64,000 bases of DNA from Candidatus Obscuribacteraceae bacterium (GCA_044226015.1 JBGAHS010000002.1:1075435-1139434); one strand, 5' to 3'. Shown: positions 24,319 to 53,114, counted from the first letter of the stretch. Notes: a model not told the origin generated them from the letters alone. Program-made: numbers and translations.

Positions 24319-27300
24319 CTATTCGAAATTAGCCCAGTCATCACCGAGATGCAGAGTCACTTTGCCATTCCGATCTATGTGCTCCCAAGAACCATCTGGA
24401 TGATAAATCGAATTGCTGCCATCTCGAGCATCCTGTTTCAAAATATCGCCCTTCTCATTCTTAAACCAGGTAATTCCATCTTCGGGAGTCTGTCCTTCGT
24501 ATGCTTGCCACTTCTTTTGCGATTCTTTGTAATCCAAGATGTTAGAGAGCTTCCGGTTAAGCTCTGTCATTCGATGAGGACGCAAAGGCTTGTCGCCAGC
24601 AACAACTTCCTTTGGCTTAGCCGCGGCTTTCTCAGGCGCAGCCACTTTAGTCTCAATTCCAGCTTTGCTGCGGTATGTCCGATTTCCCCTCGCATCCTCT
24701 AGCACACACGTCCCATCGGGATAGTGTATCTCCTTTCGTTTATTAGGATACTGAATTTGGAAGGTGCCGTCGGCAAATTGTGTTTCAGCATACCCATCTT
24801 TCCTGGTAGCTACAATGTCGCCCTTGTCCGTAACATCCAGCTCTCCATCCATAACATCTTGCTTGCGTCCCTTCTCATCAAAGAAGATCCAGCCGCCCGT
24901 CTCAGCGGCATTGCGCTTCCACTTGCCACCATCTATGGTGATTTCAACCAACACATTTGCTGAATTGTACTTCACAGTAGTGGCTGATCCATCCGGGTAT
25001 TTGTAGGTAAAAACCCGCTCAGCAGAAACAATCTTCTTTATAGCGCCAGTTCCAGGTCGGTGCTTTCTGTCGTACTCGTCCTTAGGAGGAGTTATCATTG
25101 CCTGCGAATGGATACCACCTGCTTCACTATCTGATGGAGTTTCCCAGGGGTTGTACGCAAGTGGCGAGAGTCCCTTACCACTCCTCGAACCTATCGCATT
25201 GTTCAAACCGAGACTCGCGGCCGCAGTAATTGGCGGTCCTGAAGCTGCATTTCCAGTGTGAGCAGGCGCAGCCACCGACGGCTTGCTCTCCTGTCGAGCC
25301 GTATGCGCTGACGAATCCGGCACCGCAGATGGTGACTGCCCCATAACAGGATCTACCGAAGGATTATCCCCAGCGGTACCAAGGCGGGCTTTGGCCGATG
25401 CCGCAAACTTGACCTTCACATCCTTATTATCAACCTTGTTTTCAACGGGCTTTGGTTCCGCCGCTTTCATCTTTATTGGTCCTGGAACCTGGAAAGGAGG
25501 AGACTGAGTCCTCGACGCGGAAGCGATCTCCTTGTGTTCTACAGCACCCATCATGCGAGTCTGCGTAGTCTTCTTGCGAGCCGGCGCCGAACCAGGTTGA
25601 ATGGCACGACTTTGCTGCAAACTCGACACCGAAGGCGCAACCGCTGGTGGAGTCACTTTCGGAGGAACAATCTTAGGCAAGTCAGCCTTGGGCGCGGGCG
25701 CTCGCTGCTCTGCTGCGTCCGGAACACCGAGGACAGAACGAGCCGCTGCGCTAATCGGATCCGCACTACGGTTTCCAGGACTCAGGAAGGATTGATGCGG
25801 AGACGGAGCCAGAATCTCCGGCGTGGGTGCCTTAGCCGCCTCCCCCCGTAGTGGTAAGGGAGGTGGTATCGCGCTTGATCTTACTGAAACAGCCGAACTC
25901 GACTTAGGCTCCAGCTTTGGGGCTACCTTTTGGGCTTCCAGCTCAGCTTGCGCAGCTGGTTTCGGCTCAATATTTGGAGCTTCCACCTTTGCTTGCACAA
26001 CTGGCTTCGGCATGATCCCTGGAGCTTCCACCTTTGCCTGTACAACTGGCTTCGGCATGATCCCTGGAGCTTCCATCTTTGCCTGTACAACTGGCTTCGG
26101 CATGATCCCTGGAGCTTCCACTTTTGCCTGTACAGCCGGTTTCGGCTCGATCCCTTGAGCTTCCACCTTTGCCTGTACAGCCGGTTTCGGCTCGATCCCT
26201 TGAGCTTCCACCTTTGCTTGCACAGCCGGTTTCGGCTCGATCCCTTGAGCTTCCGACTTAGCCTGTACAGCTGGTTTCGGCTCGATCCCTTGAGCTTCCA
26301 CCTTTGCTTGCACAGCCGGTTTCGGCTCGATCCCTTGAGCTTCCGACTTAGCCTGTACAGCTGGTTTCGGCATGATCCCTGGCGCTTCCGACTTAGCCTG
26401 TACAGCCGGCTTCGGCTCGATCCCTGGAGCTTCCGACTTAGCCTGTACAGCTGGTTTCGGCATGATCCCTGGCGCTTCCACCTTTGCCTGTACAGCTGGT
26501 TTCGGCATGATCCCCGGAGCTTCCCCCTCTGCCTGTACTACTGGTTTCGGCATGATCCCCGGAGCTTCCCCCTCTGCCTGTACTACTGGTTTCGGCATGA
26601 TCCCCGGAGCCTCAGGCTTTGCTTGCACAGCTGGTTTCGACATGCTCCCTGGAGCCTCAGACTTAGCCTGTACTTCGGTCTCTGGCTCGGCAACAGATGC
26701 GTGCTCATTCGGTTGGATTTCAGTCTTCGACTCCGAACTGCGAGCAATTACTGAATGCGACTCAACCTTCAACTCCTCAGCTTTCATGCGCGTTACAGAG
26801 TGAGGTGCAGATGTTCCAGGTGCATGACGCTCACCAGAACTCTTCAAATGTTCAGCAGATTGAGCAGGCTTGGCAGAGCCACCCCAGAATCTGCCACCTC
26901 GCTTCTGCGGCAAAGCGTGTGAACTGACTTCCGGACTGGTGCCAGACCAGAACCTTCCAAGCATCTGTACGGCAGCGGCTCCCTCGTCATGCGATACACT
27001 CCCGCCCTGAGCAGACGTTGCATCACCATGGGAGTTGAATGCGCCGGTTGCGTTGTTGGCATTCGATGCGACAGAGGAATGAATCGCGCTACCACTCGCA
27101 GAAAGTGGCTGCGAAACACCCTGAGGGTCACCAGCAGTAGCAGCGCCAGAAGGAGACAAAAACTTTTCAGAAGGTCCTGGAATTTTAATAGGATTCACTT
27201 CTTGCTCAAGTTGCGACTCTCGCCTAAATTGCTCAACCAAGTCCTGGATGCGTGCCTCAACCGGATTGATATTCTCAGCTTGATTATTGGTACCAGATGC

Positions 27301-28953
27301 TCTGCTCACTTGACCCAATAGTTCTTGTTCTGCGCGAGACAACTGAGCAGCCTCGGTGGCTCCCATTGCGGCTTCCCACTGGGTAAATATGCCTTTTGAG
27401 AAATCGTCTGTCGTAAAGGTACCCGAACTGATTTTCTCTTCAAGCAGTTTCTGCCTTGCTAGCTCAGGGTCGTATGGAGGTTGCTGTATTGAACTGAGTT
27501 GTGCATTAGACTCGCCTTCCTGCACCTCCTCCCGCGGCAGTTCATGCTCAGAGGTGCTCTTCCTCCTTGCCGCCATACGCTCAGCAATTTTTGCTTTCGG
27601 CCACTTACTTTGTGATTTAGACAATTTAGGACCCTGCGCCTGACTGGGGCGATCGTTGTCATTCATATATTTTTGCTCAACATGCGCCGTTGGCTGCGAA
27701 GCAAACGACTTATCCGATATCTCCGCTTGCACTACCTGCATACTCTTCTCTGTTGAATCAGATGGGAGATGCAGGGTAACTGCCTCCTCTTCTTCACCGT
27801 TTTCATCTGCAGCCGAACTCTGAGGAAGAAAAATTTCTTCCTCAAGCACTTCCTCATCTTCATCAATTGCGTTCGCAGAAGCTTGATCAGCAGACGATTC
27901 GTCGTCGCTCGCCAAATCGTAAGACGTTGAAGCATCCTCATCGGGCTGCTCAAAGGTCGACTCTCCGGAAGTCACAAACCCAGAATCAGAATACTCATCA
28001 GTAATCTCCTCAGCGGGTCCATCAATAGGCTCCGCAAGCGCATCAGTAGGCTCGACAGCACAATCTTCAAGCATAGACGCACCTTGCTCTTCATCAGTTT
28101 CATCCGAATAGCTGTCCGTAAAAAAGGGATCCGCCGCGTGCGAGCTTGCATAATCGTGTGCCCCAGGCGAGCTCGCATGATCCGACACTGCATGCGATAC
28201 CATCGCACCAGCCACCTGCTCATTAACTTCTTCGAATTCGTCAGCAGATGCGCCATTCACAAATTCAGTGGAATTCACATTTTCTGCTGGCTCGCTGTAA
28301 CTTCCAGCGGCAGACCCACCATAACTTTTGTCCGTAGACTCCACATAACTTTCGTCGGCAGACTCGCTGTAACTTTCAGACCCAGCACAAGTTTCTTCGG
28401 CAGGCTCGCTATTGTTTTCTTCTGCTACAGAATGCTCTAAAGCTTCCATGCTTTCAGGCTCGTAGTCCTGCTCGGAATGCTGATAACGAACAGCAGCTGT
28501 GTCCTGTGAATCAAACGCCTCATCAGAATCAACAGGATCGTTTTCTTCAAACTCTTCGTTTTCCCCAATATCTTCAGCTACGGACTCAACATGGGACGAT
28601 GCAGGGTCCATGGAATGAGCCATGCGGAGAATCTCCGCAGTGGATGGCAGCGGCTTCGTCGCCGGGCGTGGAGCGGCATCTGAAGGCTCTGGTGCATTAG
28701 CGAGAGCTTTCAACATTTCCGGGTCTATACGCTTTATCAGCTTACTTTCTTTTGCTTTCTTTTTCTTCTTCTTTTTCCCGAAGATTTCAGGCTGAGGACC
28801 GAGATATTGCATGGTCGCCTTGTCTCTCATTCCAGCTTTCCTGGACTCGAGATAATCTTTTTCAACTCTTGCAAGGTCTTTCTTTAGAGAATTGGCTTCA
28901 GCTCGTGCCCAGTCGCCATCCTTGTCGCCAGACTCATCATCATCGTCACTCAT
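24319..28953 (-). CDS. Giant low-complexity protein (acidic N-half, 15-aa repeats, C-terminal YPDG beta-hairpin region)
   Basis: 1544-aa ORF with AAAGG upstream; function unknown. Confidence 0.8.
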   Translation of the reverse strand: MSDDDDESGDKDGDWARAEANSLKKDLARVEKDYLESRKAGMRDKATMQYLGPQPEIFGKKKKKKKAKESKLIKRIDPEMLKALANAPEPSDAAPRPATKPLPSTAEILRMAHSMDPASSHVESVAEDIGENEEFEENDPVDSDEAFDSQDTAAVRYQHSEQDYEPESMEALEHSVAEENNSEPAEETCAGSESYSESADESYVESTDKSYGGSAAGSYSEPAENVNSTEFVNGASADEFEEVNEQVAGAMVSHAVSDHASSPGAHDYASSHAADPFFTDSYSDETDEEQGASMLEDCAVEPTDALAEPIDGPAEEITDEYSDSGFVTSGESTFEQPDEDASTSYDLASDDESSADQASANAIDEDEEVLEEEIFLPQSSAADENGEEEEAVTLHLPSDSTEKSMQVVQAEISDKSFASQPTAHVEQKYMNDNDRPSQAQGPKLSKSQSKWPKAKIAERMAARRKSTSEHELPREEVQEGESNAQLSSIQQPPYDPELARQKLLEEKISSGTFTTDDFSKGIFTQWEAAMGATEAAQLSRAEQELLGQVSRASGTNNQAENINPVEARIQDLVEQFRRESQLEQEVNPIKIPGPSEKFLSPSGAATAGDPQGVSQPLSASGSAIHSSVASNANNATGAFNSHGDATSAQGGSVSHDEGAAAVQMLGRFWSGTSPEVSSHALPQKRGGRFWGGSAKPAQSAEHLKSSGERHAPGTSAPHSVTRMKAEELKVESHSVIARSSESKTEIQPNEHASVAEPETEVQAKSEAPGSMSKPAVQAKPEAPGIMPKPVVQAEGEAPGIMPKPVVQAEGEAPGIMPKPAVQAKVEAPGIMPKPAVQAKSEAPGIEPKPAVQAKSEAPGIMPKPAVQAKSEAQGIEPKPAVQAKVEAQGIEPKPAVQAKSEAQGIEPKPAVQAKVEAQGIEPKPAVQAKVEAQGIEPKPAVQAKVEAPGIMPKPVVQAKMEAPGIMPKPVVQAKVEAPGIMPKPVVQAKVEAPNIEPKPAAQAELEAQKVAPKLEPKSSSAVSVRSSAIPPPLPLRGEAAKAPTPEILAPSPHQSFLSPGNRSADPISAAARSVLGVPDAAEQRAPAPKADLPKIVPPKVTPPAVAPSVSSLQQSRAIQPGSAPARKKTTQTRMMGAVEHKEIASASRTQSPPFQVPGPIKMKAAEPKPVENKVDNKDVKVKFAASAKARLGTAGDNPSVDPVMGQSPSAVPDSSAHTARQESKPSVAAPAHTGNAASGPPITAAASLGLNNAIGSRSGKGLSPLAYNPWETPSDSEAGGIHSQAMITPPKDEYDRKHRPGTGAIKKIVSAERVFTYKYPDGSATTVKYNSANVLVEITIDGGKWKRNAAETGGWIFFDEKGRKQDVMDGELDVTDKGDIVATRKDGYAETQFADGTFQIQYPNKRKEIHYPDGTCVLEDARGNRTYRSKAGIETKVAAPEKAAAKPKEVVAGDKPLRPHRMTELNRKLSNILDYKESQKKWQAYEGQTPEDGITWFKNEKGDILKQDARDGSNSIYHPDGSWEHIDRNGKVTLHLGDDWANFE
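25920..26685 (-). repeat. 45-bp (15-aa) coding repeat PKPAVQAKxEAxGI[M/E], ~17 copies
   Basis: Visible in both DNA and translation. Confidence 0.95.
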
Positions 28954-31664: not shown

Positions 31665-31936
31665 TGGATCCGCTCTTATCGAGATCCAATGTTATGGGGA
31701 TACAACGTCCGGATCATGTGTTACGGGGATCCGATCTTATCGGGATCCGATACCAGTTCGGATCCAATTTTATCGGGCTCCACTACCATCCGCGCTCCGA
31801 TCTTATCGGGACCCGATACCAGTCCGGATCCAATTTTATCGAGCTCCACTACCATCCGCGCTCCGATCTTATCGGGACCCGATACCAGTCCGGATCCGAT
31901 CTTATCGGGATCCGATACCATCCGCGCTCCAATACC
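31665..31936. repeat. GATC-rich tandem repeat, 33-bp subunits in a 66-bp period
   Basis: TCCGATCTTATCGGGA at 31730, 31796, 31862, 31895. Confidence 0.92.
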
Positions 31937-37389: not shown

Positions 37390-37403
37390 TGACACCGTTC
37401 AGA

Positions 37404-37434
37404 AAAGGCACTCTCCAGAACTGGAGAGTGCTTT
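37404..37434. terminator. Probable bidirectional terminator
   Basis: GCACTCTCCAG-AA-CTGGAGAGTGC flanked by A and T tracts between convergent genes. Confidence 0.75.
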
Positions 37435-37483
37435 GGATTCATCTGATTCAGTTCAATGATCTTCTACTTGGGTACTGACTAGT

Positions 37484-38563
37484 TTAGTTGCCGAACTTCT
37501 TCTCAAGAAGACCAGGAGCGATTTTCTCTATTCTTCGAAGATCGTCAGCCACTCTCTCATCAGAACTCATCTTGTTACGATCTTTTCCAGCACTTGCCGA
37601 GCTGTTTTCAGCGTGAGGAATCTTAGGCGCACCTGGTCCTTCGCTATGGGGTCCGTCACCACCTTTGCCGCCACCGCCGCCGCCCTGACCTTCCATGCGG
37701 CCGAATGAAACGCCCTGATTTCCGCGAGTCACAGAGCGGAAGCCTTCTGCATCGAAGGATACTTCAGCTCCGTCCTTGAAGCTTACAGTTGTTACACCAT
37801 CTCTATCGGTCACTACCTTTTTAACGTTGTCACCTTTGATAGTGTTGGATCCGTCCGGGTTGAGAGTTATGCGATCTCCATCGGGAGTGAATAACGATTC
37901 TTTTCCATCTTCACGAACAATGTGGTCGCCGGTGGGCAACTCTTCAACTCCATCCTTGATTTCTTCGGAGCTTTCCGCATGACTTTGCGCGCTCATGTCG
38001 CCAATCTTGTCCGAAATTTCTTGATTCTTCAGCTCATTCCCAATTTTGCCGAGACTATCCGCCTTAGGATTCAGCGCATCCTGAAGTTTGTCGGTTTTTC
38101 CAGCTGCTTCAGAATTTTCCTTATCCAAGCGATTTGTTTTTGCATCGTCTGGCATCTTATTTACTTGACCATGATGAAATTCATGTTGCTGCGTGACTGG
38201 GTCAACTTCTGCACCGTTCTTGTTGCGTTCTTGATCTTTCGAAGAATTGTCCTTATCGGACTTAGCATTATTCTCGCCAGTACCTTTCTTCAGGTCTTCG
38301 TGTTCCTTAGAAGACTTTCCTTCCTCTCCCTGCTTACGCTTCTCGACCTGCTTGTCCTTATCGTCACCAAGCTCGAGCTTAGGTAGACCTGAATCTTTGT
38401 CACTCTTGCTATTGTTGGTCAATGAATCGCTGATAGCTCCTACTTTGGCTCCAGCTGCACCAAAAACTTCTTCTCTGAACTTATCTCCACTCTCTGCAGC
38501 GCCGCCTTTATCGTTCGATTCGACGTTCTCAACCTTCTGTTTGTTCAAGTTATCATCTGCCAT
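37484..38563 (-). CDS. Hypothetical protein, paralogue 1 with the shared 'ELPTGD' beta-rich domain
   Basis: VEELPTGDHIVREDGKESLFTPDGDRITLNPDGS..IKG.. domain; GGAGGG RBS. Confidence 0.85.
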   Translation of the reverse strand: MADDNLNKQKVENVESNDKGGAAESGDKFREEVFGAAGAKVGAISDSLTNNSKSDKDSGLPKLELGDDKDKQVEKRKQGEEGKSSKEHEDLKKGTGENNAKSDKDNSSKDQERNKNGAEVDPVTQQHEFHHGQVNKMPDDAKTNRLDKENSEAAGKTDKLQDALNPKADSLGKIGNELKNQEISDKIGDMSAQSHAESSEEIKDGVEELPTGDHIVREDGKESLFTPDGDRITLNPDGSNTIKGDNVKKVVTDRDGVTTVSFKDGAEVSFDAEGFRSVTRGNQGVSFGRMEGQGGGGGGKGGDGPHSEGPGAPKIPHAENSSASAGKDRNKMSSDERVADDLRRIEKIAPGLLEKKFGN

Positions 38564-38823
38564 CTGAGCAACCCTCCCTGCAACCGTACAGCCTCTCCGG
38601 CGAAAGAGAAGCGTCCCAAAAACCAGTTAGTAAAAGCCTTCCTAAAGCAATCCAATGATAGAAGTATGCAAAACTTAAACGGAATTTATTACGGTTTTTC
38701 CCACCTACCTGATCTGTTCATCTATGCATCAGGGTTTGCATCATTTTGCATAACGGATCACACAATTATGCAGCTTGAACGAAAAAGCACAAAGAGTTAT
38801 AAACTAGACCCCTCTCTGGAGCA

Positions 38824-40263
38824 ATGATGAAAACTAGATTTCAGCTGCTCGTTCTAAGCTTCACACCTATTCTGCTCTTGCAGCAGAACGCATGCTGGGG
38901 ACAAATTTCAAGCAAAGCTCCAAATAAAGTAGTGAAGAAAGCAATGAAAGCAACTCCGCACAATATAGTAGGGACCTGGTCGGGCACTCTGGTTCTCCCA
39001 AACTCGTTAACTATGCCACTCGTTTTTCGATTTGCCGAACTCAAAGGTGTTTACTCAGGTAGTCTCGAAAGCCCTAGCCAGAGTTCGCAACAAATCGATT
39101 TTGATTCAGTGGGGCAGGATGAGAATGGAAACATACACGCGAAAATTGCAAAGTTACTCGCGGAGTTCTCAGGGCACCTGGAAGAAGATGGCAAAGTTCT
39201 AAAAGGCACCTGGACTCAGAATGGACAATCAATGCCAGCTAGTTTCAAATCAGTTGGCGAGTACAGTGCAAAAAAGCATGCGCAGGAACCGATTCCTCCA
39301 TTTCCTTACAGCTCTGAGGATATCAGCTTCAAGAGTGGCGACCATCAAATTTCCGGGACAATCACTTTCCCGCGTGGTGCGAGTAATTCACCTGCCATCG
39401 TACTGATTCACGGCAGTGGACCTCACGACCGCGATGAAAACATATTGGGTCACAAACCATTTCTAGTATTAGCTGATCACCTCACGAAAAATGGCATTGC
39501 TGTTCTTCGATATGACAAACGAGGTTGCAAGAAATCTACTGGGAATTATTCAAGTGCTACCAGCGCAGACTTTGCAGATGATGCTGTCGCCGCAGTGGAA
39601 TTTCTGAAAACACGTTCTGAGATAGACCAAAAACACATTGGACTTCTTGGACACAGTGAGGGTGGAGTCATTGCTCCTATGGTGGCAAACAGGATGCCAA
39701 ACGACATAAGCTTTGTGGTTTTGATGGCGGGGTCGGCGCTAACAGGCGAGAAAATACTACTAGGGCAGGTCCGCGCGTTATCAGCGAACCCAACTGATGC
39801 CACAAAAGAGCTGACACTCGCAAGCAAAACCTATGAAATCCTAAAAGCCGAGCCAAATAACGATAAAGCTATGGACAAGATTCTCTTGATGCGAAAGGAA
39901 ATTGGAAAGGATGATTCAAAGAATTTGGCGGATGTAAAACGCGATCTAGCCGCGCTAACCAGCCCATGGTACCGCTATTTCATCAGCTACGATCCCAGCG
40001 TCGAACTTTCAAAGTTGAAGTCTCCCGTTCTTGCCATAAATGGTGACAAAGACAAGCAGGTGCTGGCTGATGAGAATCTGGCACGAATCAAGGAATGTCT
40101 GCAGTCAGCAGGCAATACCAAAGTGAGAATTGAAAAGATTCCCAATACAAATCATCTGATGCAAACATGCGCCACAGGTATGCCACAGGAATATTCCGCA
40201 ACAGATGAAACGATATCACCTGCGGTGCTGAAGCTGATCAGCGATTGGATAAAAGCGCAGTAA
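38824..40263 (+). CDS. Secreted alpha/beta hydrolase (S9/S15-like peptidase or esterase)
   Basis: Signal peptide; HGSGPHDRDE, RYDKRG, GHSEGG, GDKDKQV, NHLMQ. Confidence 0.88.
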   Translation: MMKTRFQLLVLSFTPILLLQQNACWGQISSKAPNKVVKKAMKATPHNIVGTWSGTLVLPNSLTMPLVFRFAELKGVYSGSLESPSQSSQQIDFDSVGQDENGNIHAKIAKLLAEFSGHLEEDGKVLKGTWTQNGQSMPASFKSVGEYSAKKHAQEPIPPFPYSSEDISFKSGDHQISGTITFPRGASNSPAIVLIHGSGPHDRDENILGHKPFLVLADHLTKNGIAVLRYDKRGCKKSTGNYSSATSADFADDAVAAVEFLKTRSEIDQKHIGLLGHSEGGVIAPMVANRMPNDISFVVLMAGSALTGEKILLGQVRALSANPTDATKELTLASKTYEILKAEPNNDKAMDKILLMRKEIGKDDSKNLADVKRDLAALTSPWYRYFISYDPSVELSKLKSPVLAINGDKDKQVLADENLARIKECLQSAGNTKVRIEKIPNTNHLMQTCATGMPQEYSATDETISPAVLKLISDWIKAQ

Positions 40264-40311
40264 GAGCAGCACAATTCTCTGGATTGCTCAGGTAATCATG
40301 CTGAATGCCTG

Positions 40312-40343
40312 CTTGCACTGCCACTGGAAAGTGGCAGTGCAAG
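40312..40343. terminator. 14-bp hairpin with GGAA loop between convergent genes
   Basis: CTTGCACTGCCACT-GGAA-AGTGGCAGTGCAAG. Confidence 0.65.
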
Positions 40344-40458
40344 ATCAAAGGAATCGGATGCAGGCGACTGAACTCATCTCCATCGTTTCTGAGTTCAATC
40401 GCTTAGATACGCTTGGGTAATGCTAACGCGAATCTACGAGAGCGCCAACTCTATATCG

Positions 40459-41880
40459 TCAGAGTGGTTTGTGTGGCAAGCGAGGGTCCTTCAAAAGGTA
40501 ACCGTGCATTACTTTGCCATTCAGAAAGAAAACGGCTTCGTTGCCCTTTCTAATTGACTGAAAGCCATTCTTTCCAAAGGTCACTTTTTCTCCATCTCCC
40601 AAAGTTATTGTAGTGACACCATCCTTAGTGGTAGCGACAGACTTCACGTCACCTTTCACAGTATAGGTTCCGTCCTCTTTTAGCGAGATTAGATCGCCAT
40701 TTCCTGTAAGAAGGCGTTGTTCACCATCAAGTCGATCGAGCAAATCACCTGTCGGCAGCTCCTCAGGCTCACCTTCCTCGAATCTGGGTTTCGGTTCAAT
40801 TCCACCTTCACCAATCCTCTCTGTGATTGGTGGGAATGGAAATGGACGCGGCTCGATGCCGCCTTCTCCTACAGCAAGAGTTATTGGAGGTCGAGGTTCG
40901 ATGCCACCTTCACCTACCATTTCGGTGATAGGCGGTCGCGGTTCGATGCCGCCCTCTCCCACAGCGAGAGTTATTGGAGGTCGAGGATCTCTGCCACCTT
41001 CTCCCACCATTTCGGTGATAGGCGGTCGTGGTTCGATGCCGCCCTCTCCCACAGCAAGGGTTATTGGAGGACGAGGATCCCTGCCACCTTCACCTACCAT
41101 TTCGGTGATAGGTGGTCGTGGTTCGCTAAAAGGCGGTTTGAGAATGGGACCGGCTTCCTCAGCAGCATTAGTCGTCGTTGGCGGTTTGAGAATGGGACCG
41201 GCTTCTTCAGCAGCATTGGTCGTCGTTGGCGGTTTGAGAATGGGACCGGCTTCCTCAGCAACATTGGTCGTCGTTGGCGGTTTGAGAATGGGACCGGCTT
41301 CTTCTCTGAAATTTGTTGGGTCCTTGAGAATCCGTCCGGCTTCTTCTACCAGATTCGATGTCTCTGGTGGCTTTGATCCTGTTCCAGCCTCATCTCTTAG
41401 GTTCGATGTCTCTGGTGCCTTCGTTCCTGAGCCAGACTCATCTCTTAGGTTCGATGTCTCCGGTGCCTTTGTTCCTGTTCCAGACTCATCTCTCAAGTTC
41501 GATGTCTCCGGTGCCTTTTCCCCTGTGCCACCTTCTCCTCGCAAATTAGAGGTTGGAGGGGTAAACGGATACCGGCCGGTCGTACCGTCCTCTCCAACCA
41601 TTTTACTAGTTGGACCGTGATGCTGGTCACCACCCGGCTTAGAACCAGTTCCCTCCTCGCCTTTCATTTTCGTTAGTGCACGTTCCCCATCATTATGTTC
41701 ATCGTTTTTTTGCACACTGCTGTAAGTTCGTCGCTCAGCTAAATCTGCGATGAACAAATTCTGCCTGTCTCTTGTGACCTCATCATGAAAGCTGTTGTAC
41801 GCGCGATCTCGATTCGAGGATTCAGCGTTGCCAACGTCTTTTTGTTGGATATCCTCATGCGGTCTTACTTGCTCAACCAT
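40459..41880 (-). CDS. Putative multicore graspetide (plesiocin-type) precursor fused to the ELPTGD domain (paralogue 2)
   Basis: GAGGAG RBS before ATG 41880; LFIADL motif; 18 [T/S]xxxxExG repeats; ATP-grasp ligase 1.3 kb upstream on the same strand. Confidence 0.8.
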   Translation of the reverse strand: MVEQVRPHEDIQQKDVGNAESSNRDRAYNSFHDEVTRDRQNLFIADLAERRTYSSVQKNDEHNDGERALTKMKGEEGTGSKPGGDQHHGPTSKMVGEDGTTGRYPFTPPTSNLRGEGGTGEKAPETSNLRDESGTGTKAPETSNLRDESGSGTKAPETSNLRDEAGTGSKPPETSNLVEEAGRILKDPTNFREEAGPILKPPTTTNVAEEAGPILKPPTTTNAAEEAGPILKPPTTTNAAEEAGPILKPPFSEPRPPITEMVGEGGRDPRPPITLAVGEGGIEPRPPITEMVGEGGRDPRPPITLAVGEGGIEPRPPITEMVGEGGIEPRPPITLAVGEGGIEPRPFPFPPITERIGEGGIEPKPRFEEGEPEELPTGDLLDRLDGEQRLLTGNGDLISLKEDGTYTVKGDVKSVATTKDGVTTITLGDGEKVTFGKNGFQSIRKGNEAVFFLNGKVMHGYLLKDPRLPHKPL

Positions 41881-42199
41881 GTTATTTCTCCTCATAAACA
41901 GCCAAAAACAGAAGCCGCAAAGCCTCAAATACCCTTACCTACACTTACTAAATTCGGACGCACCTTTCGGTGCATTTACTACCATACTGATCAACAACGA
42001 CTGAGACCACGTAACTTACAGCAAAAGACTTACGCGCTTCCGCAAAGCTGTATGCGTGGTATCACATAAGCACCACTCATTAAACGCGCTTAGCAAACGC
42101 AGTTGCCAAACGCAATTGCCAAATGCAAGCGCTCCTCGCCAGAAATGTGATCCTCACGAGGATACGCTCATATTTTCTGAGATAGATCTGCTTCGATCT

Positions 42200-42937
42200 T
42201 TACTCTACTTTTGGAGCTGATGGCGCAGTATGAGCATCACCCTTTGTCCCACCAGATTTCTTCGAACCTTCTGAGTAAGAGCCTTTGCCACCACCTCCAG
42301 CACTGCCACCGCCATATTCGCCCCAACTTTCAGAATAGGATCCACCAGTGCCGCCACCGCCACCACCGCCAATACGACCGTTCTTTTCATCGAGCTTAAA
42401 CTTGGGCAAAGAGGATTTCTCAAGGCTGATTATATGCGCAGTATGACCATCTCTGCTAACGCTTGAGATGCCATCTTTAGTGAAGGAGACCTTCGCTCCG
42501 TCATTGAAGGTAACCGTGGTCCTTCCGTCTTTGTCTTTGTCTATCGCCTTCACATTTCCTTTTATAGAATAGGTGCCATCTGGTTCCAGCAGAACCCGGT
42601 CACCTTTTTCGGTGTAAAGTGATTGTCTATCACCCTCAGTAATGAGAGTGTCACCGGTAGCGAGCTTTCGCATGCCGTCGCCAGTGACTATCAAAGCAGA
42701 GCTTTCTAGGCGTTTAGTATTCTTCACTTCATTCATCACATCAAACGCAGAGCGCTTCATGTCTTGATTCTCTGGCGATTGATTTTCTTTTTTATTCTCT
42801 ACAGATCTGGGTTGACGTTGATCCAACTCCCTGTAAAGTTCATCTATCAGCCGCGAACTAGCGCTTTGCGAAGAATCATTTGTAGAGTTTGCATTCTTCG
42901 TGTTTTCGATATCATTCTTTTCAATTTGATCTGCCAT
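42200..42937 (-). CDS. Hypothetical protein, paralogue 3 with ELPTGD-like domain and Gly-rich tail
   Basis: RKLATGDTLITEGDRQSLYTEKGDRVLLEPDGTYSIKG; AAGGAG RBS before ATG 42937. Confidence 0.85.
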   Translation of the reverse strand: MADQIEKNDIENTKNANSTNDSSQSASSRLIDELYRELDQRQPRSVENKKENQSPENQDMKRSAFDVMNEVKNTKRLESSALIVTGDGMRKLATGDTLITEGDRQSLYTEKGDRVLLEPDGTYSIKGNVKAIDKDKDGRTTVTFNDGAKVSFTKDGISSVSRDGHTAHIISLEKSSLPKFKLDEKNGRIGGGGGGGTGGSYSESWGEYGGGSAGGGGKGSYSEGSKKSGGTKGDAHTAPSAPKVE

Positions 42938-43215
42938 GGCTTGCCGCTCCTTCCTTGAGGACTCGCAACATCCTAGAGCGGATATGCGAAGTCTTAGACA
43001 GCCAGCCGTTTCAAACACCGATCTCCAAAATTATGAAAGAAAGAAGCTCTACAATCTATACGCGAGTTCGCAAAATTGATTGCGTAAAAGCGCTAAGTAT
43101 ATTCGCCAGGTAAATTTACTCAGGTATTTCGCCAAGAAAATTCGGAAACAAGTTTCTCTGAAGCCGATTTTCTCTTGCGCCCCATTATCTTGTCCAGGAT
43201 TCGTGCAAAGTCAGG

Positions 43216-44154
43216 TTAGCCTTCGATCAAGAATCTTGCCAATTCGCGATCAATCGGAAAACCACTCCGCATCTGGAATCCTATAAACATAGGTGATGGA
43301 TTGCATTCAAGAAGAACATACTCACCATTACTAAATTTGACGTCAACACCGCTGAAGACCATGCCACATATTGATGCAGCCTTGACGCACATTTCTTTTA
43401 CATGCTCAGGAACGTCGACCACTTTGAGTTCGCCTTCGTTTCCACGATAGTCCAGTGCGTCTGATTCTATTTCAATTGCGCAAAGGCATTTACCGTTTAG
43501 AACCCAGACACGAATATCGGCACCCGCATGCAGTTTTTGAAACAGTACAGGAGCACTGCTCAGCATCTTCAATCTTTCTTTCCCCAGGTCTTCATCTCTC
43601 AAGAGCTTGCAAGATGCACCACCTGCAACAGGCTTGTAGATCACATCGCCATGTTCTTTTTTGAATTCCAGCAATTCTTCTGGATTATTGGTCACTAGCG
43701 TAGCGGGAACTTTGATGCCAGCTCTCATAAGCATCACTAATTGATGAGGCTTCAAGAAATGGAGATGAAAACACTCCACTGGATTCACAACACGTTCAGC
43801 TTGAAACGCAACGGCGCGCATCCATGATCCAAGTAAAGATTGTCGCTCACGTTCGGCTACGTATGCGCTATACCAACTTTTCATGCTGGGCAGAAGTCCC
43901 GCATCAATTTGCTCTTGCAAATCATAAGGAGGTTCGCTGTAATAAACCGTTCTGTTATAAAAGGCATTGATACCATCAAGGTTTTTGCCATTGTAAATCG
44001 GAACTTGATCCCGCAAGCTGAACGAAGTCTTGTCTGGAAAATTCAACGTGTCAATTACAACAGCTTCCGCTCCGAGTTCTTCCACTACAGACTTCATGTG
44101 TTCCGTGTGCTGCTCACCGGCTCCGCCTACAATTCCTACTTTTGAAGACCTCAT
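43216..44154 (-). CDS. ATP-grasp ligase (RimK superfamily), probable graspetide macrocyclase (PsnB/MvdD-like)
   Basis: VVNP, KPHQL, G..VPATLVTNNP, VIYKP, LFQ, DIRV, DYR, LECNP; GGAGG RBS before ATG 44154. Confidence 0.88.
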   Translation of the reverse strand: MRSSKVGIVGGAGEQHTEHMKSVVEELGAEAVVIDTLNFPDKTSFSLRDQVPIYNGKNLDGINAFYNRTVYYSEPPYDLQEQIDAGLLPSMKSWYSAYVAERERQSLLGSWMRAVAFQAERVVNPVECFHLHFLKPHQLVMLMRAGIKVPATLVTNNPEELLEFKKEHGDVIYKPVAGGASCKLLRDEDLGKERLKMLSSAPVLFQKLHAGADIRVWVLNGKCLCAIEIESDALDYRGNEGELKVVDVPEHVKEMCVKAASICGMVFSGVDVKFSNGEYVLLECNPSPMFIGFQMRSGFPIDRELARFLIEG

Positions 44155-44297
44155 CCAGACCACCCTCCGAAACTTGCCCGACTATATTTTTCCCAATCTG
44201 CTCGAGACTGAAGTCACCAGCCCATATCCGCTACTCAATACTTAACTACACCTGTTGCGAATTCCAATCGACTTCAATCCATCCGTTCAGTTTCTTC

Positions 44298-45476
44298 CTA
44301 TTTTGAATCCAAATAGGGTAAGAGGTTCTTCAATCGCTCAGGCAAGTGGTTTCGCTGATCATCTTTAGGGCTTCCGTTGGGAAGGTCCAGGCGATGCTCC
44401 CATTTACTTGGGGGAAGCTCTCGCTTCTCTATCTTGGGTGATTGCGAGCCGTTTTCCATGAGATCGTGAAGTCGTTTGTTGGATCGCAGGAATTCCACGG
44501 TCTTACCGTTTTTCGAGATGCTCTGAATGCCGCTGGAATCGAAATTGATCTGACTGCCATCAGCAAAAGTCACTTTGCTTGAACCGTCCTTGGCTGTTGA
44601 TACTTCTCTAACATCTCCCTTGACACTGTAGGTTCCGTCCTTGTTTATCGTCAGCTGATTTCCGCTCGGAGTGAAAATAGTTTGGGCACCGTCCTTGGTG
44701 ACGAGATAATCACCTGTAGATAGTTTTTCAACACCATCTTTCAGCGGAGGGAAAACATAGTCGATTCTGTGACTTAAGCGGTCACCGATGCTTCCGGCAC
44801 GATCGTCAAAGCGGCCTTGCTGGTCAGACTCGAATCTTTTACTTGGCGAGGACGAATCCTTGCTGTCAGAACTTTGATCAACCGGCGTCGGCCGAAGTAT
44901 TTTGTCAGACACAGTATCTTCAAAGCGAAGCGGCTTGTCGAGCACCGCAGGACGCGGTTCATGGACCTGCTTAGCTGGCGATTCAGAATTGCGGTCCTCT
45001 TGCTCTGGCTTTCCGGGTCCACAAATTATTACTGAATAGCGTTCTCCTCCTAGAATCGCCTGCCTGCCGTCAGATGAGCTAGCAGGCGTATTGGGATTAC
45101 GCTCGTCCCTATCTTTTGGTCCACAAACAATTAATGGGTCCCCTGCTATCGCCGCTTTCGAGGTGTCAAGCAAGCCAGCCGGCACATTGAGATTCCGCCC
45201 GTCTTTTAGTTTTGCTGAAGACGCGGAATCTCCTGCTACAGGAATTAAACCGGCTCCATACACACCGTTTTCCTTATTAGGAGATGATACCAAAGCCTCC
45301 TTTCCGTTTTGAATCAAGGGATTTGCTAAGCCATAAAGGATTTCTGCATGCCCTTCGGACAAGATCTTGCCTCTCGACCTCTCAGCATTCACTTCGTTCA
45401 TTAGTACATCAACAGCGCCCCCAGAGCTTGAACTGTTCTGTTCAGCGTTGTCGTTTTGTTTTGATCTATCTGTCAT
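44298..45476 (-). CDS. Hypothetical protein, paralogue 4 with ELPTGD-like domain
   Basis: VEKLSTGDYLVTKDGAQTIFTPSGNQLTINKDGTYSVKGDV; GGAGG RBS before ATG 45476. Confidence 0.85.
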   Translation of the reverse strand: MTDRSKQNDNAEQNSSSSGGAVDVLMNEVNAERSRGKILSEGHAEILYGLANPLIQNGKEALVSSPNKENGVYGAGLIPVAGDSASSAKLKDGRNLNVPAGLLDTSKAAIAGDPLIVCGPKDRDERNPNTPASSSDGRQAILGGERYSVIICGPGKPEQEDRNSESPAKQVHEPRPAVLDKPLRFEDTVSDKILRPTPVDQSSDSKDSSSPSKRFESDQQGRFDDRAGSIGDRLSHRIDYVFPPLKDGVEKLSTGDYLVTKDGAQTIFTPSGNQLTINKDGTYSVKGDVREVSTAKDGSSKVTFADGSQINFDSSGIQSISKNGKTVEFLRSNKRLHDLMENGSQSPKIEKRELPPSKWEHRLDLPNGSPKDDQRNHLPERLKNLLPYLDSK

Positions 45477-45751
45477 GTCCTGGTCCTCCAATCAAACGGA
45501 TACTCGATCCATTATTCTTTTCAAACCAGCCTTGAATCACCCGATTCATGCATAACACATACCTAGAATAGTGCTTGAGAATAAATGCGATAAGTATGTG
45601 CAAACGCGCCGACATAGACAGACCGATTCTGCATTCAATTTGCAAGTTTCCGCAACGACTTGAGTGCGCTTGTTGACGTAGCGGATTTGCTTTCACACTG
45701 CAATCAGGTACCACTCTTTCCTATCAGTATTTTCCTTTTTGTTCATCAGGA

Positions 45752-46319
45752 TTGTTCTGCTTTTATCGATTCTCTGATGATCAGTACATCTGCTCTTGCT
45801 GTTCTCGCATAGCCTTCTTGTTTCTTTGCTTTGCTTTGTTCTTATCGATTCTCTGATGATCAGTACATCTGCTCTTGCGGTTTTCGCATCGCCTTCTTGT
45901 TTCTTCACTTTGCTTTGTTCAGCTCTTATCGATTCTCTGATGATAGGTACATCTGCTCTTGCGGTTTTCGCATAGCCTTCTTGTTTCTTTGCTTTGCTTT
46001 GTTCTGCTCGTGTCGATTCTCTGATGATCGGTACATCTGCTCTTGCGGTTTCGCATCGCCTTCTTGTTTCTTTGCTTTGCTTTGTTCAGCTCTTATCGAT
46101 TCTCTGATGATCGGTACATCTGCTCTTGCGGTTTTCGCATAGCCTTCTTGTTTCTTTGCTTTGTTCAGCTCTTATCGATTCTCTGATCATCAGTACATCT
46201 GCTCTTGCGGTTTTCGCATCGCCTTCTTGTTTCTTTGCTTTGCTTTGTTCTGCTCGTGTCGATTCTCTGATGATCGGTACATCTGCTCTTGCGGTTTTCG
46301 CATTGCCTTCTTGTTTCTT
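45752..46319. repeat. T-rich tandem repeat, 7 x 79-84 bp
   Basis: [A/G]TCGATTCTCTGAT at 45765, 45844, 45928, 46012, 46095, 46174, 46258. Confidence 0.96.
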
Positions 46320-49628: not shown

Positions 49629-52600
49629 ATGGGTGGAGACAAACTTACCAGCAAGCCAACAGACCAAGCGCCTTTGCCAGAGCAGGGCTCAAAACTGAGT
49701 CTTCACTTTGATGCATCTGGTGCTCCCCAAACGCGCTCAGCCGAAACCAGTACTGAAAAGAGTCCTTTCAAAACCATCGATAAACAGGGCGACAACTCGA
49801 ACTCAACAAATCAGATTGAATCGTATTTAGCTCTGCAAGAAAGAGCTCGCGCACCATACGAGGTTCCAAAAAACCTTCAGGAAGGTCAGAAAAACATTGC
49901 TCGGGATAGAGAAGCCACAAACACAGCTGGAATCCCGAAAGAACGCACAATTACTACTCAAACCGGCGAACAGATTAAAGGCATCAAAGTTGTTGATGAC
50001 GTAACGAAGGAACACCGCTTCATAGCGGCCGATAAAGACGGCAAGTTTAACCAGTATCAAATTCAAGAGAATGGCAAAAAACTGCAGCCGCTCGATACAT
50101 CCGGCAAACCAGTAGGCGATGCAATTATGACCAACAAAGCAAAGCCTATGGAAGGTTCACGCAATACAGCAGAAGAAGCGGCTAAAGCCATGGATGGCAA
50201 TGGCAAGCGTCATGAGTTACCCGAGTGGGCAAGCAAACGAGATGGCGAAAAGGGGCGCGGCGAGAACAAGGAATCCGCTGACAAAGGCAATTCAACTGCG
50301 AAATCGCAAGACGGACTAAAGACAGATCCAGCAAAATCTGATGCGCCAAAAATAGATTCACCTAAAGGCGAAAACAAAACAAATCCAGACTCCACCTCAA
50401 CCGAAAATCCGAAGCCTAGACAAGAGTGGAACCGAGACAAAGATGGCGATGGCAAGCCCGATAGCCGCCCTATTCGCGACCGTGATGGCGATGGCAAACC
50501 AGACTTTCGCCCTATCCGCGACCGCGATGGCGATGGAAAACCAGATTTCCGCCCCGGGAAAGACCGCGATGGCGAAAACAAGCTCGACGCAAGCAAGAAA
50601 GATGCAGGTAACAAGGACGCGCCTAAAGATCAAAGCAAAGACAATCCAAAACCTGATTCAACAGATCCGCGCGGAACTCGCGGAGAGATCGACAATACGC
50701 GCTTTGGTAAACCAATTCAGCCAGACGCAGGCGAAAAACCAGGACAGTTCCAACAACCAAAGCAAGCACAGGATTGGCAGAAGCCAGACCTGGGAAATCG
50801 TCCCAACCGAAATGAATTCAACAATCAAACTAATCCGCAAAAACCAGATGGTCCAATTCCAGCTTCAAATAGGAATTTCGAAAATTCAAATTCGCGAGCG
50901 GACGGAAGACCTGAGAATCCTAACCTGAGACCAGACGGAAGACCCGATTTCAACGGACGCCCTGACAGAGGCGACTTGCAGAATAGAGATTTTCCCGGAC
51001 GACGTGATTTTTCTGGACGTGATGACGTGCCAGGGCGCAGAGAACTTGGAGCACGCGAAGACCTAGCAGGAAAGTTTGACCTGAAAGGACGAGTCGATAT
51101 GAACTCCCGCACCGATTTTGCTGCCGCGCGTACTGAATTGGCAAATTTGAATGGCGCCAAAGGAGAGCCCAATCTTCGAGCTGGACGAGATATCCCTGGT
51201 GATCTACGAGCAGATGGCGGAATGCGAGCCCTAGACAGAGCTCTAACAGCGGACATTATGAGCCGAAGCAACGGACATGACCTTTCCGGACGCGACCTTA
51301 TCGGTCGCGAACTGGCAGGTAAAGACTTTGCAGGGCGAGGGCTGGACGGTAGATCTTTGAGTCAGATACTTGATGGTCAGAGACTCAGTTTAAAAGACAA
51401 CACGATGCAGACATTCAGGTCTAATGCCGATCTGCTCACGAATTTGAACCGAAGCCTGGGCGGATCCCAGCTGGACTCCCTTTCAAAACCGGGCGGACGT
51501 TCCGGAATTGATGGAGAGCACGCGGGACTCAGCGCAAGAGGACTTGACGGGAAGCTCGCCGACGGCAGACTTTCAGAAAGCAAACTGGACGCTAAAGAAC
51601 TTGGTAAATCAAGCAGTATGCTTCAAAACGCTATGTCCGAATTGAGCGGAAAAATGCTCGCCACCAAGCTACTCGATATGACGCAAAAACTTGAAATCGG
51701 CAAAATACCGAATCAGGAGCAAACAAACAACGCCATCCGTGAGATGTCCAGGATTCAACGAAACGAAATGGGTACAGCCCAGGACCTTCTCTCTTCTATC
51801 CAGAAAAATCTTTCGCAAAAGAACAACGAGATTGCTTCAAATTCGAATAACAATAACAGCTTTATCGCAAAGAACCTGGAAATTGGTCAGCAACAAGCAT
51901 TGCGCAGCCGCGAACAGGAAAATAATAAGGAACAGAAAACGGAAACCATCACAAAGAACGTTGACAGCATCGCTAATAAATCCCAACAAAACCAACAGAA
52001 TCAAATTCTGACCGCGAAAAATGCTGAGTCTACGAGCCAAAGCCAGACGCAGAAACAAGAACAAACCAGAACTGGTCGCGATGCTGAAGAGCAAACGAAT
52101 CAAAACGCAAAGAACTTCCAAGCAAATCAGAACCTGGTTCAAGCCGAGAAGACTCAAGACAGCAAGCAAGATTCAATTACAAACAAAAACCAAGATAACA
52201 AGCTAGATGACAAAAAACATCTCGAGGACGACAAGAAAACGAAGCAAGACCTTCGAGACGACAGCAAGCAAGACCAGATGGCTGGACTGATTGCAGCAGC
52301 AAAGCTGAAAGAACTAAAAGACAAAGAAAAAGGTAAAGAAAAGGAAGACATAAAAGACAAGAGCAAGCAAGATCCCAAACAAAAAACTCGCTTGAAATAT
52401 CGGGTGAAGAAAAACGATACTCTGGCGCTGATAGCCGAGAAGTTCCTAGGCAATTCGGCACATGCCGCATCCATTTTCCATATCAACAGAACACTCATTC
52501 CAGTCACCACCTATAGTGGCAAGTCCTTCGCTAACCCGCAAGTTGACTCGATGATCTGGATTCCAACAGACGATGATATCGAAATATTCAAGAACTCAGG

Positions 52601-53114
52601 TGTCTTGAAAAACTACGCGGAGATCTCCTTTGCAGGTGTCACTTACGCATCGGCAGAAGATGAATTAGCAGCACGCTTCGGTCAGCGCTGGTTCGGACCG
52701 TCGGATGAGGAGAAGAGAATTAGCCGCGCAAACTTCTCTGATTCTGATAGACAGATTCGCCGAACCAACATAGAAAACCAGCTTGGCGATTTTAACCCGA
52801 GCAATAAAGAATTGGACGGACGCATCCGTTACACCGTACGTCTTGGCGAAACTTTGAAGAGCATCGCTCTAAAGCACCCGCTGTTAAAAGATGTAGAAAT
52901 GTGGAAACTCATTGCTCGAGTAAATAACCTGAGCGAAGAAACAGACGAGAAAGGGTGTCCGCTAGCTTCACTTAAGCGTGGAACAAGCATTGTGCTTCCA
53001 ACACATGAGGAAGCGGAAAATTTCAGAGCCAGCAAGCCTGTGCGCAAACCGAGTTCTGAACAAATGATGCCAGTTCTGCCAATTTCAGAGATCAGCGCGA
53101 TCATGCAAGGCTAG
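49629..53114 (+). CDS. Giant low-complexity protein with two C-terminal LysM-like domains
   Basis: YRVKKNDTLALIAEKFLG and YTVRLGETLKSIALK; DRDGDGKPD repeats; Q/N/K/D-rich linkers. Confidence 0.85.
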   Translation: MGGDKLTSKPTDQAPLPEQGSKLSLHFDASGAPQTRSAETSTEKSPFKTIDKQGDNSNSTNQIESYLALQERARAPYEVPKNLQEGQKNIARDREATNTAGIPKERTITTQTGEQIKGIKVVDDVTKEHRFIAADKDGKFNQYQIQENGKKLQPLDTSGKPVGDAIMTNKAKPMEGSRNTAEEAAKAMDGNGKRHELPEWASKRDGEKGRGENKESADKGNSTAKSQDGLKTDPAKSDAPKIDSPKGENKTNPDSTSTENPKPRQEWNRDKDGDGKPDSRPIRDRDGDGKPDFRPIRDRDGDGKPDFRPGKDRDGENKLDASKKDAGNKDAPKDQSKDNPKPDSTDPRGTRGEIDNTRFGKPIQPDAGEKPGQFQQPKQAQDWQKPDLGNRPNRNEFNNQTNPQKPDGPIPASNRNFENSNSRADGRPENPNLRPDGRPDFNGRPDRGDLQNRDFPGRRDFSGRDDVPGRRELGAREDLAGKFDLKGRVDMNSRTDFAAARTELANLNGAKGEPNLRAGRDIPGDLRADGGMRALDRALTADIMSRSNGHDLSGRDLIGRELAGKDFAGRGLDGRSLSQILDGQRLSLKDNTMQTFRSNADLLTNLNRSLGGSQLDSLSKPGGRSGIDGEHAGLSARGLDGKLADGRLSESKLDAKELGKSSSMLQNAMSELSGKMLATKLLDMTQKLEIGKIPNQEQTNNAIREMSRIQRNEMGTAQDLLSSIQKNLSQKNNEIASNSNNNNSFIAKNLEIGQQQALRSREQENNKEQKTETITKNVDSIANKSQQNQQNQILTAKNAESTSQSQTQKQEQTRTGRDAEEQTNQNAKNFQANQNLVQAEKTQDSKQDSITNKNQDNKLDDKKHLEDDKKTKQDLRDDSKQDQMAGLIAAAKLKELKDKEKGKEKEDIKDKSKQDPKQKTRLKYRVKKNDTLALIAEKFLGNSAHAASIFHINRTLIPVTTYSGKSFANPQVDSMIWIPTDDDIEIFKNSGVLKNYAEISFAGVTYASAEDELAARFGQRWFGPSDEEKRISRANFSDSDRQIRRTNIENQLGDFNPSNKELDGRIRYTVRLGETLKSIALKHPLLKDVEMWKLIARVNNLSEETDEKGCPLASLKRGTSIVLPTHEEAENFRASKPVRKPSSEQMMPVLPISEISAIMQG

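Follow-up and report, generated by a model that had tools for sequence, protein, structure and literature searches.

Among described graspetides, a class of peptides made by the ribosome and modified after translation (RiPPs), the closest counterpart of the system reported here is plesiocin from Plesiocystis pacifica (group 2, subgroup 2a), for which a single ATP-grasp enzyme, PsnB (PDB 7DRM), acts on the precursor PsnA2, which carries an LFIEDL leader motif and four tandem eight-residue cores with Pro/Gly linkers. PsnB links the inner residue pair of a core first, and loss of either the Thr or the Glu slows turnover more than 4-fold (bioRxiv 10.1101/2021.03.09.434688). The group 2 precursor RcpA from Rheinheimera, modified by RcpB, has three cores of mixed type, a double-glycine (GG) site and a leader-cutting C39-ABC transporter; a single ring has been mapped there (Thr10-Glu15 on VTxxxxED) as well as a short TTxxxED register (Thr26-Glu30 and Thr25-Asp31) (PMC11626197). 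Here we describe a related locus in a stretch of 64,000 nucleotides from a Candidatus Obscuribacteraceae bacterium (GCA_044226015.1 JBGAHS010000002.1:1075435-1139434; hereafter the window), whose genome (8.2 Mb, 92% complete, 5665 open reading frames (ORFs) scored) we label G000. On the minus strand, a PsnB-like ATP-grasp macrocyclase of 312 residues (43216-44154) lies 1335 bases from a co-oriented ORF for a precursor of 473 residues and ~50.5 kDa (40459-41880; GAGGAG upstream of the ATG), which combines an N-terminal tag, a leader motif, 18 cores and a C-terminal beta domain. By every feature checked here the predicted system is a member of group 2, save that only four of the 18 cores are canonical; it is real and probably functional.

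The ligase resembles PsnB in database comparisons as well as in single residues. Its best PDB match was 7DRM (E 7.8e-51), with RimK entries at 1.3e-7 to 1.9e-7, and a profile of 19 close homologues found 7DRM at E 2.2e-65, the next entry at 1.6e-15, RimK at 3e-12 and LysX-type proteins at 2.6e-8. Microviridin-type ligases (MdnB/C and CdnC type) are distant (E 4.6e-7 to 4.6e-6). As the numbering of 7DRM, less a 20-residue tag, fits every PsnB residue named in the paper, we take this entry to be PsnB, and the 16 named residues were mapped by hand on the 7DRM alignment (bioRxiv 10.1101/2021.03.09.434688). Eleven are identical in the window ligase (R72, R101, Y171, K172, R192, L196, V201, F203, R213, D233 and R235), three are conservatively changed (R181K, I193L, F234Y) and two differ (T180C, R195M). 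The catalytic set is present as R68, R215 and D235-Y236-R237, i.e. Arg72, Arg213 and the D(F/W)R loop of PsnB; the Tyr that replaces Phe in this loop is also found in 102 of 120 homologues. The group 2a set can be found as well (R102, Y173, L195, L198, V203, F205, R194 and K183); according to the same preprint, Arg101 and much of the leader pocket are specific to this subgroup. The ligase is a single-copy gene, with no second such gene found in the window genome, and those of its close homologues that bear names belong to Candidatus Obscuribacterales.

Alternatively, the enzyme might ligate amino acids in the manner of RimK/LysX and have nothing to do with the repeat protein, which would fit a Pfam RimK match above cut-off, a TIGR00768 match of E 2e-18 and the presence of one gene between ligase and precursor. 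However, the enzyme is more than 40 orders of magnitude nearer PsnB, retains the leader pocket and the core-binding arginines of PsnB, and co-occurs with leader-plus-core proteins. As it also stays below the NCBIfam cut-offs for RimK and LysX (TIGR00768, 66.7 vs 143.4 bits; TIGR02144, 45.7 vs 275.6 bits), we reject this identity, whose probability we regard as negligible. That the ligase modifies the 473-residue precursor is, judged from these features, highly probable, and we hold the ligase chemistry taken alone with the same confidence.

The leader motif LFIADL (41740-41757, residues 42-47) is the counterpart of LFIEDL in PsnA2 and retains the Phe and the Asp that bind PsnB according to the PsnB paper. 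LFI is invariant across six aligned precursors, and although LFIADL is absent from the part of the PMC13097080 table searched, LFISDL, LFISEL and LFIKEL are present there. The array that follows (40804-41676, residues 69-359) holds 18 cores of 12 types, spaced by 14-23 residues and separated by Pro-rich linkers: LTKMKGEE, TSKMVGED, TSNLRGEG, TSNLRDES (twice), TSNLRDEA, TSNLVEEA, PTNFREEA, TTTNVAEE, TTTNAAEE (twice), ITEMVGEG (three times), ITLAVGEG (three times) and ITERIGEG. All cores have the inner-ring pair, position 2 being Thr or Ser and position 7 Glu, and the Ser at position 2 is drawn from both Ser codon families, beside Thr. A canonical outer pair of the TTxxxxEE type is present in four cores (in one of them as TS..ED), the other 14 keeping the inner pair alone in this register, and the short bicyclic register fits four more (both copies of TSNLRDES, TSNLRDEA and TSNLVEEA). 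A single ring is thus predicted on ten cores, eight have the residues for two, and 18 to 26 esters are possible along the array. Position 3 is occupied by Asn (six cores), Glu (four), Thr (three), Leu (three) or Lys (two), and cores 12-18 alternate strictly between Glu and Leu at this position. An earlier note on this DNA had read the locus as a plesiocin-type pair, and both reading frames, the leader motif and all 18 cores that it listed are present; similarity to PsnB, LFIADL and the complete set of inner pairs bear the reading out, the ligase being far closer to PsnB than to RimK/LysX and its orthologues coming with leader-plus-core proteins. Its statement that most cores are monocyclic applies to the ten with a single pair and not to the other eight.

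The array is neither a chance pattern nor, at its junction with the C-terminal domain, an assembly fault. None of 5000 shuffles of the region reached 18 matches to the core-like pattern (mean 2.2, maximum 8), and the precursor holds 21 overlapping matches within 300 residues, the next-best ORF of the genome reaching 7. The ratio of nonsynonymous to synonymous differences (pN/pS) among repeat copies is 0.24, 0.19 and 0.23 in three repeat groups, the pairs within which are not independent; synonymous change thus exceeds amino-acid change and, by this measure, the repeats are under purifying selection. Since a contig from an independent study (37400-40931) joins the last three cores to the domain, the core-domain fusion is not due to assembly, and a second contig of that study links leader, middle gene and ligase (41275-45600). 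The stretch 40931-41275 is covered by short pieces alone, so the exact count of 18 cores is not bridged independently.

These data also bear on the possibility of decay, in which drift away from TTxxxxEE would have left most cores unmodified and the protein would be an ordinary member of a beta-domain family. In its favour, as few as four cores are canonical, efficient turnover by PsnB needs the full motif (bioRxiv 10.1101/2021.03.09.434688), and decay or divergence does occur within the clade, as the ligase of the related genome G069 (L013:7966-8907) has lost R68 (R68P), the aromatic residue of the DYR loop (now DDR) and N285 (N285S). In the window, however, we see an intact ligase, no loss of positions 2 and 7 in any of the 18 cores although Thr and both Ser codon families are used, and a pN/pS of about 0.2; moreover, the single-pair pattern is conserved in the homologue P0121 and in the genomes G059 and G062, and RcpB does make single rings (PMC11626197). 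Decay therefore appears very improbable to us.

The relatives show how the two kinds of array are distributed. The ligase occurs in 6 of 107 genomes of the order, and the same six, which are kin and not independent, match the precursor query. In the relatives the leaders read LFIEDL, LFISEL, LFIKEL or LFIDEL and are accompanied by canonical cores, and canonical arrays are found where the ligases are 72-75% identical. Four genomes (G065, G016, G059 and G062) have a precursor of 250-300 residues or more near the ligase, with mostly canonical cores and no domain seen; these genes are interrupted by gaps in G065 and G059, and in G016 the frame stops early. A further precursor is encoded on another contig in both G059 and G062, with 18-19 pattern matches, nearly all without the outer pair, and without the domain, and it is these second precursors that the window array resembles. 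They lie at L053:1342-2433 (G059) and L063:7644-8759 (G062), hold ~18 cores each in genomes for which one ligase per genome was found, and each is followed by a protein of 281-284 residues with a polar N-terminus of similar kind. G069 has two distant precursors (L064:6548-7846 and L052:1336-2046): the cores of one are of the TTxAYPES type and its C-terminal region is a different one, while the other has at least 16 ITEKKGEE-type repeats.

With the window core region as query, 9 of the 107 genomes matched at E<=0.01, among which G059 and G069 hold real precursors; L054 and L055 were rejected as unrelated low-complexity proteins, and L056-L059 were not inspected. In metagenome contigs a single-protein scan gave no match, whereas an alignment scan gave five loci. 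In L046-L049 the ligases are accompanied by canonical arrays, the largest with 12-14 matches, and the leader begins at residue 6 in the two complete N-termini. L049:401-2485 encodes a 694-residue fusion of a radical SAM/SPASM domain with a PsnB-like ATP-grasp enzyme, with plesiocin-type cores upstream; in L002 the radical SAM/SPASM gene is a separate one close to the ligase, with no precursor seen. In L002 and L046-L049 a membrane-type protein of 306-312 residues without Pfam match lies downstream of the ligase, followed in L002 and L046-L048 by an SPFH-like gene.

The C-terminal domain of the precursor (40516-40764, residues 373-455) belongs to an unnamed family. Its AlphaFold model is ten-stranded and all-beta (predicted local distance difference test score 90.4, predicted template modelling score 0.81). 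Foldseek gave no match to this model at E<=0.001, the best VIA match had Z 6.8 and a root-mean-square deviation of 3.4 over 53 of 97 residues, and the top rows of the fold search (phage spike gp138, TCP10, polo-box) span about half of the model. Of the six copies of the domain in the genome, the window holds four, in one row and all on the minus strand: a 392-residue paralog upstream of the ligase (44298-45476, domain 44469-44732), a 245-residue paralog between ligase and precursor (42200-42937, domain 42410-42673), the precursor, and a 359-residue paralog downstream (37484-38563, domain 37685-37948). Each of the three paralogs has the N-terminal motif; the outer two are without cores and the middle one has neither leader motif nor cores. 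Scans of Pfam and NCBIfam at cut-off assigned no family to the precursor or to any of the three. Thus, the domain, which the earlier note had rightly seen, is not the precursor's own, as that note supposed, but belongs to a local paralog family expanded in the lineage, and the gap of 1.3 kb between ligase and precursor, correct in length, holds a co-oriented gene that had been missed. The domain is present in 13 of the 107 genomes of the order and in 297 protein clusters at E<=0.001, and its members have a common layout, in which a polar N-terminus bearing a short conserved motif is followed by a middle part that is disordered or repetitive, then by the domain and finally by a short tail. Where the precursor has its array, the paralogs L017, L023, P0180 and P0186 have unmodified low-complexity or repeat stretches.

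Only P0121 among 17 matches to the precursor profile carries the domain. It has 12 cores of other sequence, its domain is 73% identical to that of the window precursor compared to 44% for the whole protein, and it probably lies beside the ligase P0002, which is 88% identical to the window ligase. In a quick ligase tree, computed without PsnB or RimK and used for context only, P0001 and P0002 are sisters within a 16-member clade. As P0121 alone shares the fusion and its domain is 73% identical, the fusion is recent and narrow and was kept in two relatives.

This narrowness, together with the position of the gene among four domain genes arranged in tandem and the lack of the domain in most homologues, would also fit a classic RiPP with a passenger, in which unlinked proteases release small cyclic peptides and recombination with a paralog next to it has brought in the domain as a by-product; 13 proteases of the M4 type and a C39 peptidase that stands alone are encoded in the genome. 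Yet no double-glycine-type site was found, the linkers are Pro-rich, and the fused domain keeps the invariant residues of its family and is still 73% identical to that of P0121, whereas the cores have been reshuffled. We consider this course rather unlikely, and a product that is kept largely whole reasonably probable. The full-size, ring-bearing product envisaged in the earlier note is plausible.

Residues 1-41 of the precursor (41758-41880) precede the leader and constitute a candidate export tag. A hidden Markov model (HMM) was built from 123 N-termini of the beta-domain family from other genomes, and the first 50 residues of each protein were scored. The precursor reaches 11.8 bits and P0121 19.4 bits, values attained by none of 1000 shuffles, and the precursor ranks 16 of 5665 ORFs. 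At least 8 bits are reached by 49 of the 5665 N-termini, compared to 6 in a mid-protein control and 4 in a shuffled control. Among 35 scorers hand-picked from the top 70, 18 have a Pfam match and 17 do not, and 11 act on proteins or glycans by family (four M4 and three GH25 proteins, a GH73 below cut-off, DPBB, GH14 and S51), being proteases or hydrolases; three of the four GH25 lysozymes of the genome score at least 9 bits. Hence the shared N-terminal motif may be regarded as a candidate for an undescribed export signal of Obscuribacterales, and an export function of the precursor tag is, in our view, slightly favoured. In all, a short conserved motif within a polar N-terminus is shared by ~50 proteins of the window genome, none of those checked having a hydrophobic signal; proteases or cell-wall hydrolases are numerous among them (e.g. 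L066, L070, L076 and L098 of the M4 type, L080, L081 and L083 of the GH25 type, and L075, L095 and L099).

Known export signals were sought in the precursor as well. Peak 11-residue hydropathy in residues 1-60 is 0.16, i.e. there is no hydrophobic signal of the Sec type; no RRxFL-like motif was seen by eye, with no dedicated predictor run; and no GG, GA, GS, AG or SG occurs between leader and first core (residues 42-69). As only about half of the known graspetide precursors have a GG-type site (PMC8939145), its lack does not bar membership in group 2. No ABC exporter was found adjacent to ligase or precursor, in line with the earlier note, and the three C39 matches of the genome lie in ORFs of 243, 2322 and 2886 residues, none of them transporter-sized; in the two long frames the C39-like domains are at G000:C11:93911-94207 and G000:C2:20392-20739. 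No counterpart of the GG site and the C39-ABC transporter of the RcpA system was found here, the two long C39 frames not having been scanned for ABC domains.

The genome encodes eight pilus-type ATPases and two VirB4-like genes. One of the latter, for a VirB4/TraC-like ATPase, is conserved in 106 of the 107 genomes, where identity is mostly 70-90%, a pattern unlike that of a mobile element. The G000 copy has two in-frame stops, at which the contigs of two runs differ; we read them as an assembly fault because other contigs carry other letters. L106 (G000:C1:182380-187476), L108 and L110 mark a small operon in which three small genes accompany that of the VirB4/TraC-like ATPase. For Vampirovibrio, a related predator, a role of type IV secretion has been proposed (PMC4451040). 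In other phyla, the group 2 precursors P0278 and P0281-P0284 have N-termini that look twin-arginine-like by eye, which suggests that export of such arrays as whole proteins may recur. P0278 and P0280-P0284, two of which are named Stieleria, are multi-core plesiocin-type proteins without an LFI leader and with such N-termini, and are possibly graspetides exported by twin-arginine translocation.

Based on these findings we propose the following course. The ligase would dock on LFIADL of the 473-residue protein and, as deduced from PsnB and RcpB, ATP would activate the Glu7 carboxylate of each core, held by Arg215, whereupon the Thr or Ser five residues upstream would attack and close an ester ring on each of the 18 cores. 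A second ring may form on up to eight cores, giving 18-26 water losses in all, and the ligase would progress from core to core, as described for AMdnC and its multicore substrate (PMC5934393). The genomic context suggests an origin of the gene by fusion of a leader-plus-cores array with one of the family of tag, disordered middle and beta domain; the ring array would have replaced the disordered middle, and the product would keep tag and domain and exit by the route of the tag. Finally, the varied third residue of the cores may aim the rings at different proteases, since plesiocin, an inhibitor of elastase and chymotrypsin, gains trypsin in a Leu-to-Arg variant (PMC10125368); its potency rises with ring number (PMC13097080). 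By analogy, protease inhibition may be the main job of the product, for which we put the probability a little below the halfway mark. For the whole chain, i.e. a group 2 graspetide array set in a likely exported family, kept whole and probably acting as a multi-headed inhibitor of serine proteases, arguments for and against seem to us evenly balanced.

The rings might instead inhibit nothing and serve as a structural stalk, the esters stiffening the stretch between tag and beta domain and making it protease-proof. The unmodified stretches that the paralogs named above have at this place agree with a spacer, most cores combine an atypical third residue with one possible ring, and corallotide from Corallococcus exercitus, a 22-kDa full-length product with five single rings, behaves like collagen and had no activity found (PMC13097080). 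Then again, a spacer needs neither 12 core types nor the strict Glu/Leu alternation, relatives have arrays without the domain, and the characterised group 2 products are protease inhibitors, so that a stalk appears unlikely, if somewhat less so than the release of small peptides from a passenger.

Several points weigh against the proposed chain, protease inhibition and export included. The ligase is below the NCBIfam cut-offs for RiPP maturases (TIGR04184, 41.3/475; TIGR04185, 56.1/425; TIGR04187, the best, 82.7/350 bits), ten of the 18 cores are without a second pair, while PsnB slows more than 4-fold on such variants, and 13 have Asn, Thr or Glu at position 3, as opposed to Leu in plesiocin. 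That position 3 contacts the protease is itself deduced from the name of the variant Psn-LLLR, and corallotide did not inhibit growth in a small panel (PMC13097080). Only P0121 among the best 150 domain matches has leader and cores, and as G059 and G062 have 18-19-core, mostly single-ring precursors without it, the beta domain is dispensable for the array. As to export, a common N-terminus need not mean an export signal, for which the tag is weak evidence: the 35 scorers scanned were picked by hand from the top 70, only 4 of 13 M4 proteases score at least 6.5 bits, and only three of eight precursors exceed 10 bits, four being at 3 or less. No flagellar or type III (FlhA), type VI (VipB), contractile-sheath or WXG100 genes were found in the 92% complete genome.

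In its most far-reaching form, the proposal would be that Obscuribacterales export lysozymes, M4 proteases and the beta-domain family by an undescribed N-terminal tag, possibly via the VirB4-like machine, and that the precursor is a RiPP recruited to this route, whose 50 kDa would be delivered uncut, with as many as 26 ester cross-links, inhibitory loops of twelve kinds and a folded domain of its own. We offer this as speculation and think it unlikely as a whole, though not remote.

How far the system departs from described ones depends on the feature. Shared with plesiocin are the single ATP-grasp enzyme with its leader pocket, Arg72, Arg101 and Arg213, the D(F/Y)R loop, the LFIxDL leader, and the tandem eight-residue Thr..Glu cores with Pro/Gly linkers. 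Unlike PsnA2, the window precursor has 18 cores instead of four, 14 of them without the canonical outer pair, Ser often in place of Thr, 41 residues before the leader that match a lineage-wide tag, and a folded domain after the cores. Mixed cores on one precursor, including a single ring and the short register, are known from RcpA/RcpB (PMC11626197). The supplement of PMC13097080 lists in group 2 predicted precursors, among them a 225-residue one with 18 varied cores, others with at least 14 cores behind an N-terminal region of ~110 residues, and single ITLAIGEG-type cores; its long-precursor rows come from Ca. Thiodiazotropha, Moorena, Okeania and Alteromonas, and Obscuribacterales rows are included, one of them in group 2. 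The long arrays in this part of the supplement are mostly canonical TTxxxxEE, unlike that of the window. Among the 143 group 2 rows of the table that were read, the longest precursor has 292 residues, with no C-terminal domain by eye, and the leader and core strings of the window precursor are absent from the part of the table searched.

Corallotide (group 15; PMC13097080) is likewise protein-sized, is defined as the full-length product, and combines a folded domain with single rings in tandem; it differs in its Lys-Asp lactams with hydroxylation, five repeats, an N-terminal helical domain, a ligase of another group and extra enzymes. The microviridin-type precursor AMdnA and the chryseoviridin precursor CdnA3 (group 1; PMC5934393, PMC10125368) combine one leader with several cores and single with double esters, but have another leader and core and the distant ligases mentioned above. 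By engineering, multivalent products and protein cyclisation have been obtained with another ligase (PMC12291112). In view of these precedents (PMC13097080, PMC11626197), the claim of unusually many and varied cores was overstated, and domain fusion and single rings have precedents too. As the chemistry is known and many cores and domain fusion have been described, the system is not a new class. What is new is a mostly single-ring array grafted into a lineage-specific family of probably exported proteins, and neither the C-terminal beta domain nor the shared tag was found in the precursors described elsewhere. A literature search, which left much subscription literature and most of the PMC13097080 table uncovered, found no paper on an Obscuribacterales graspetide, the beta domain or the tag.

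If the proposal is correct, one enzyme installs 18-26 rings over a 290-residue stretch of a full-size protein, which would test the reach of a single leader in directing an ATP-grasp ligase and provide a scaffold of natural origin on which multivalent protease inhibitors could be built from single-ring and Ser-containing cores. If, in addition, the tagged protein is exported uncut, RiPP chemistry would here be a post-translational modification of a secreted effector protein. Precursors of this kind are missed by size filters, e.g. the limit of 150 residues or fewer in the survey of PMC8939145, and in relatives second precursors lie far from the ligase. Moreover, the shared tag offers a handle on how an uncultured, widespread lineage exports proteins without signal peptides.

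Within the row of paralogs and convergent with the precursor lies a gene for an EstD-like alpha/beta hydrolase of the serine type with a hydrophobic, signal-peptide-like N-terminus (38824-40263, plus strand). An esterase near an ester-forming system may be due to chance, and the gene is probably not part of the graspetide system; none was found beside the ligase in the loci L010-L013, where ORF starts were inspected by eye. Scans of the window for promoters and terminators stayed at chance level (10 vs 9.8 expected and 10 vs 9.3 expected). Elsewhere in the window, 24319-28953 encodes an acidic protein of 1544 residues; a 45-base repeat occurs 16 times in its gene (25953-26673), and its C-terminal region has many beta-hairpin-like motifs. 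Tandem DNA repeats at 23884-24281, 31727-31930 and 45752-46319, with periods of 24/42, 33/66 and 84 bases, hold open frames on several strands, and 49629-53114 encodes a protein of 1161 residues with a polar N-terminus, short repeats and LysM domains at the C-terminus.

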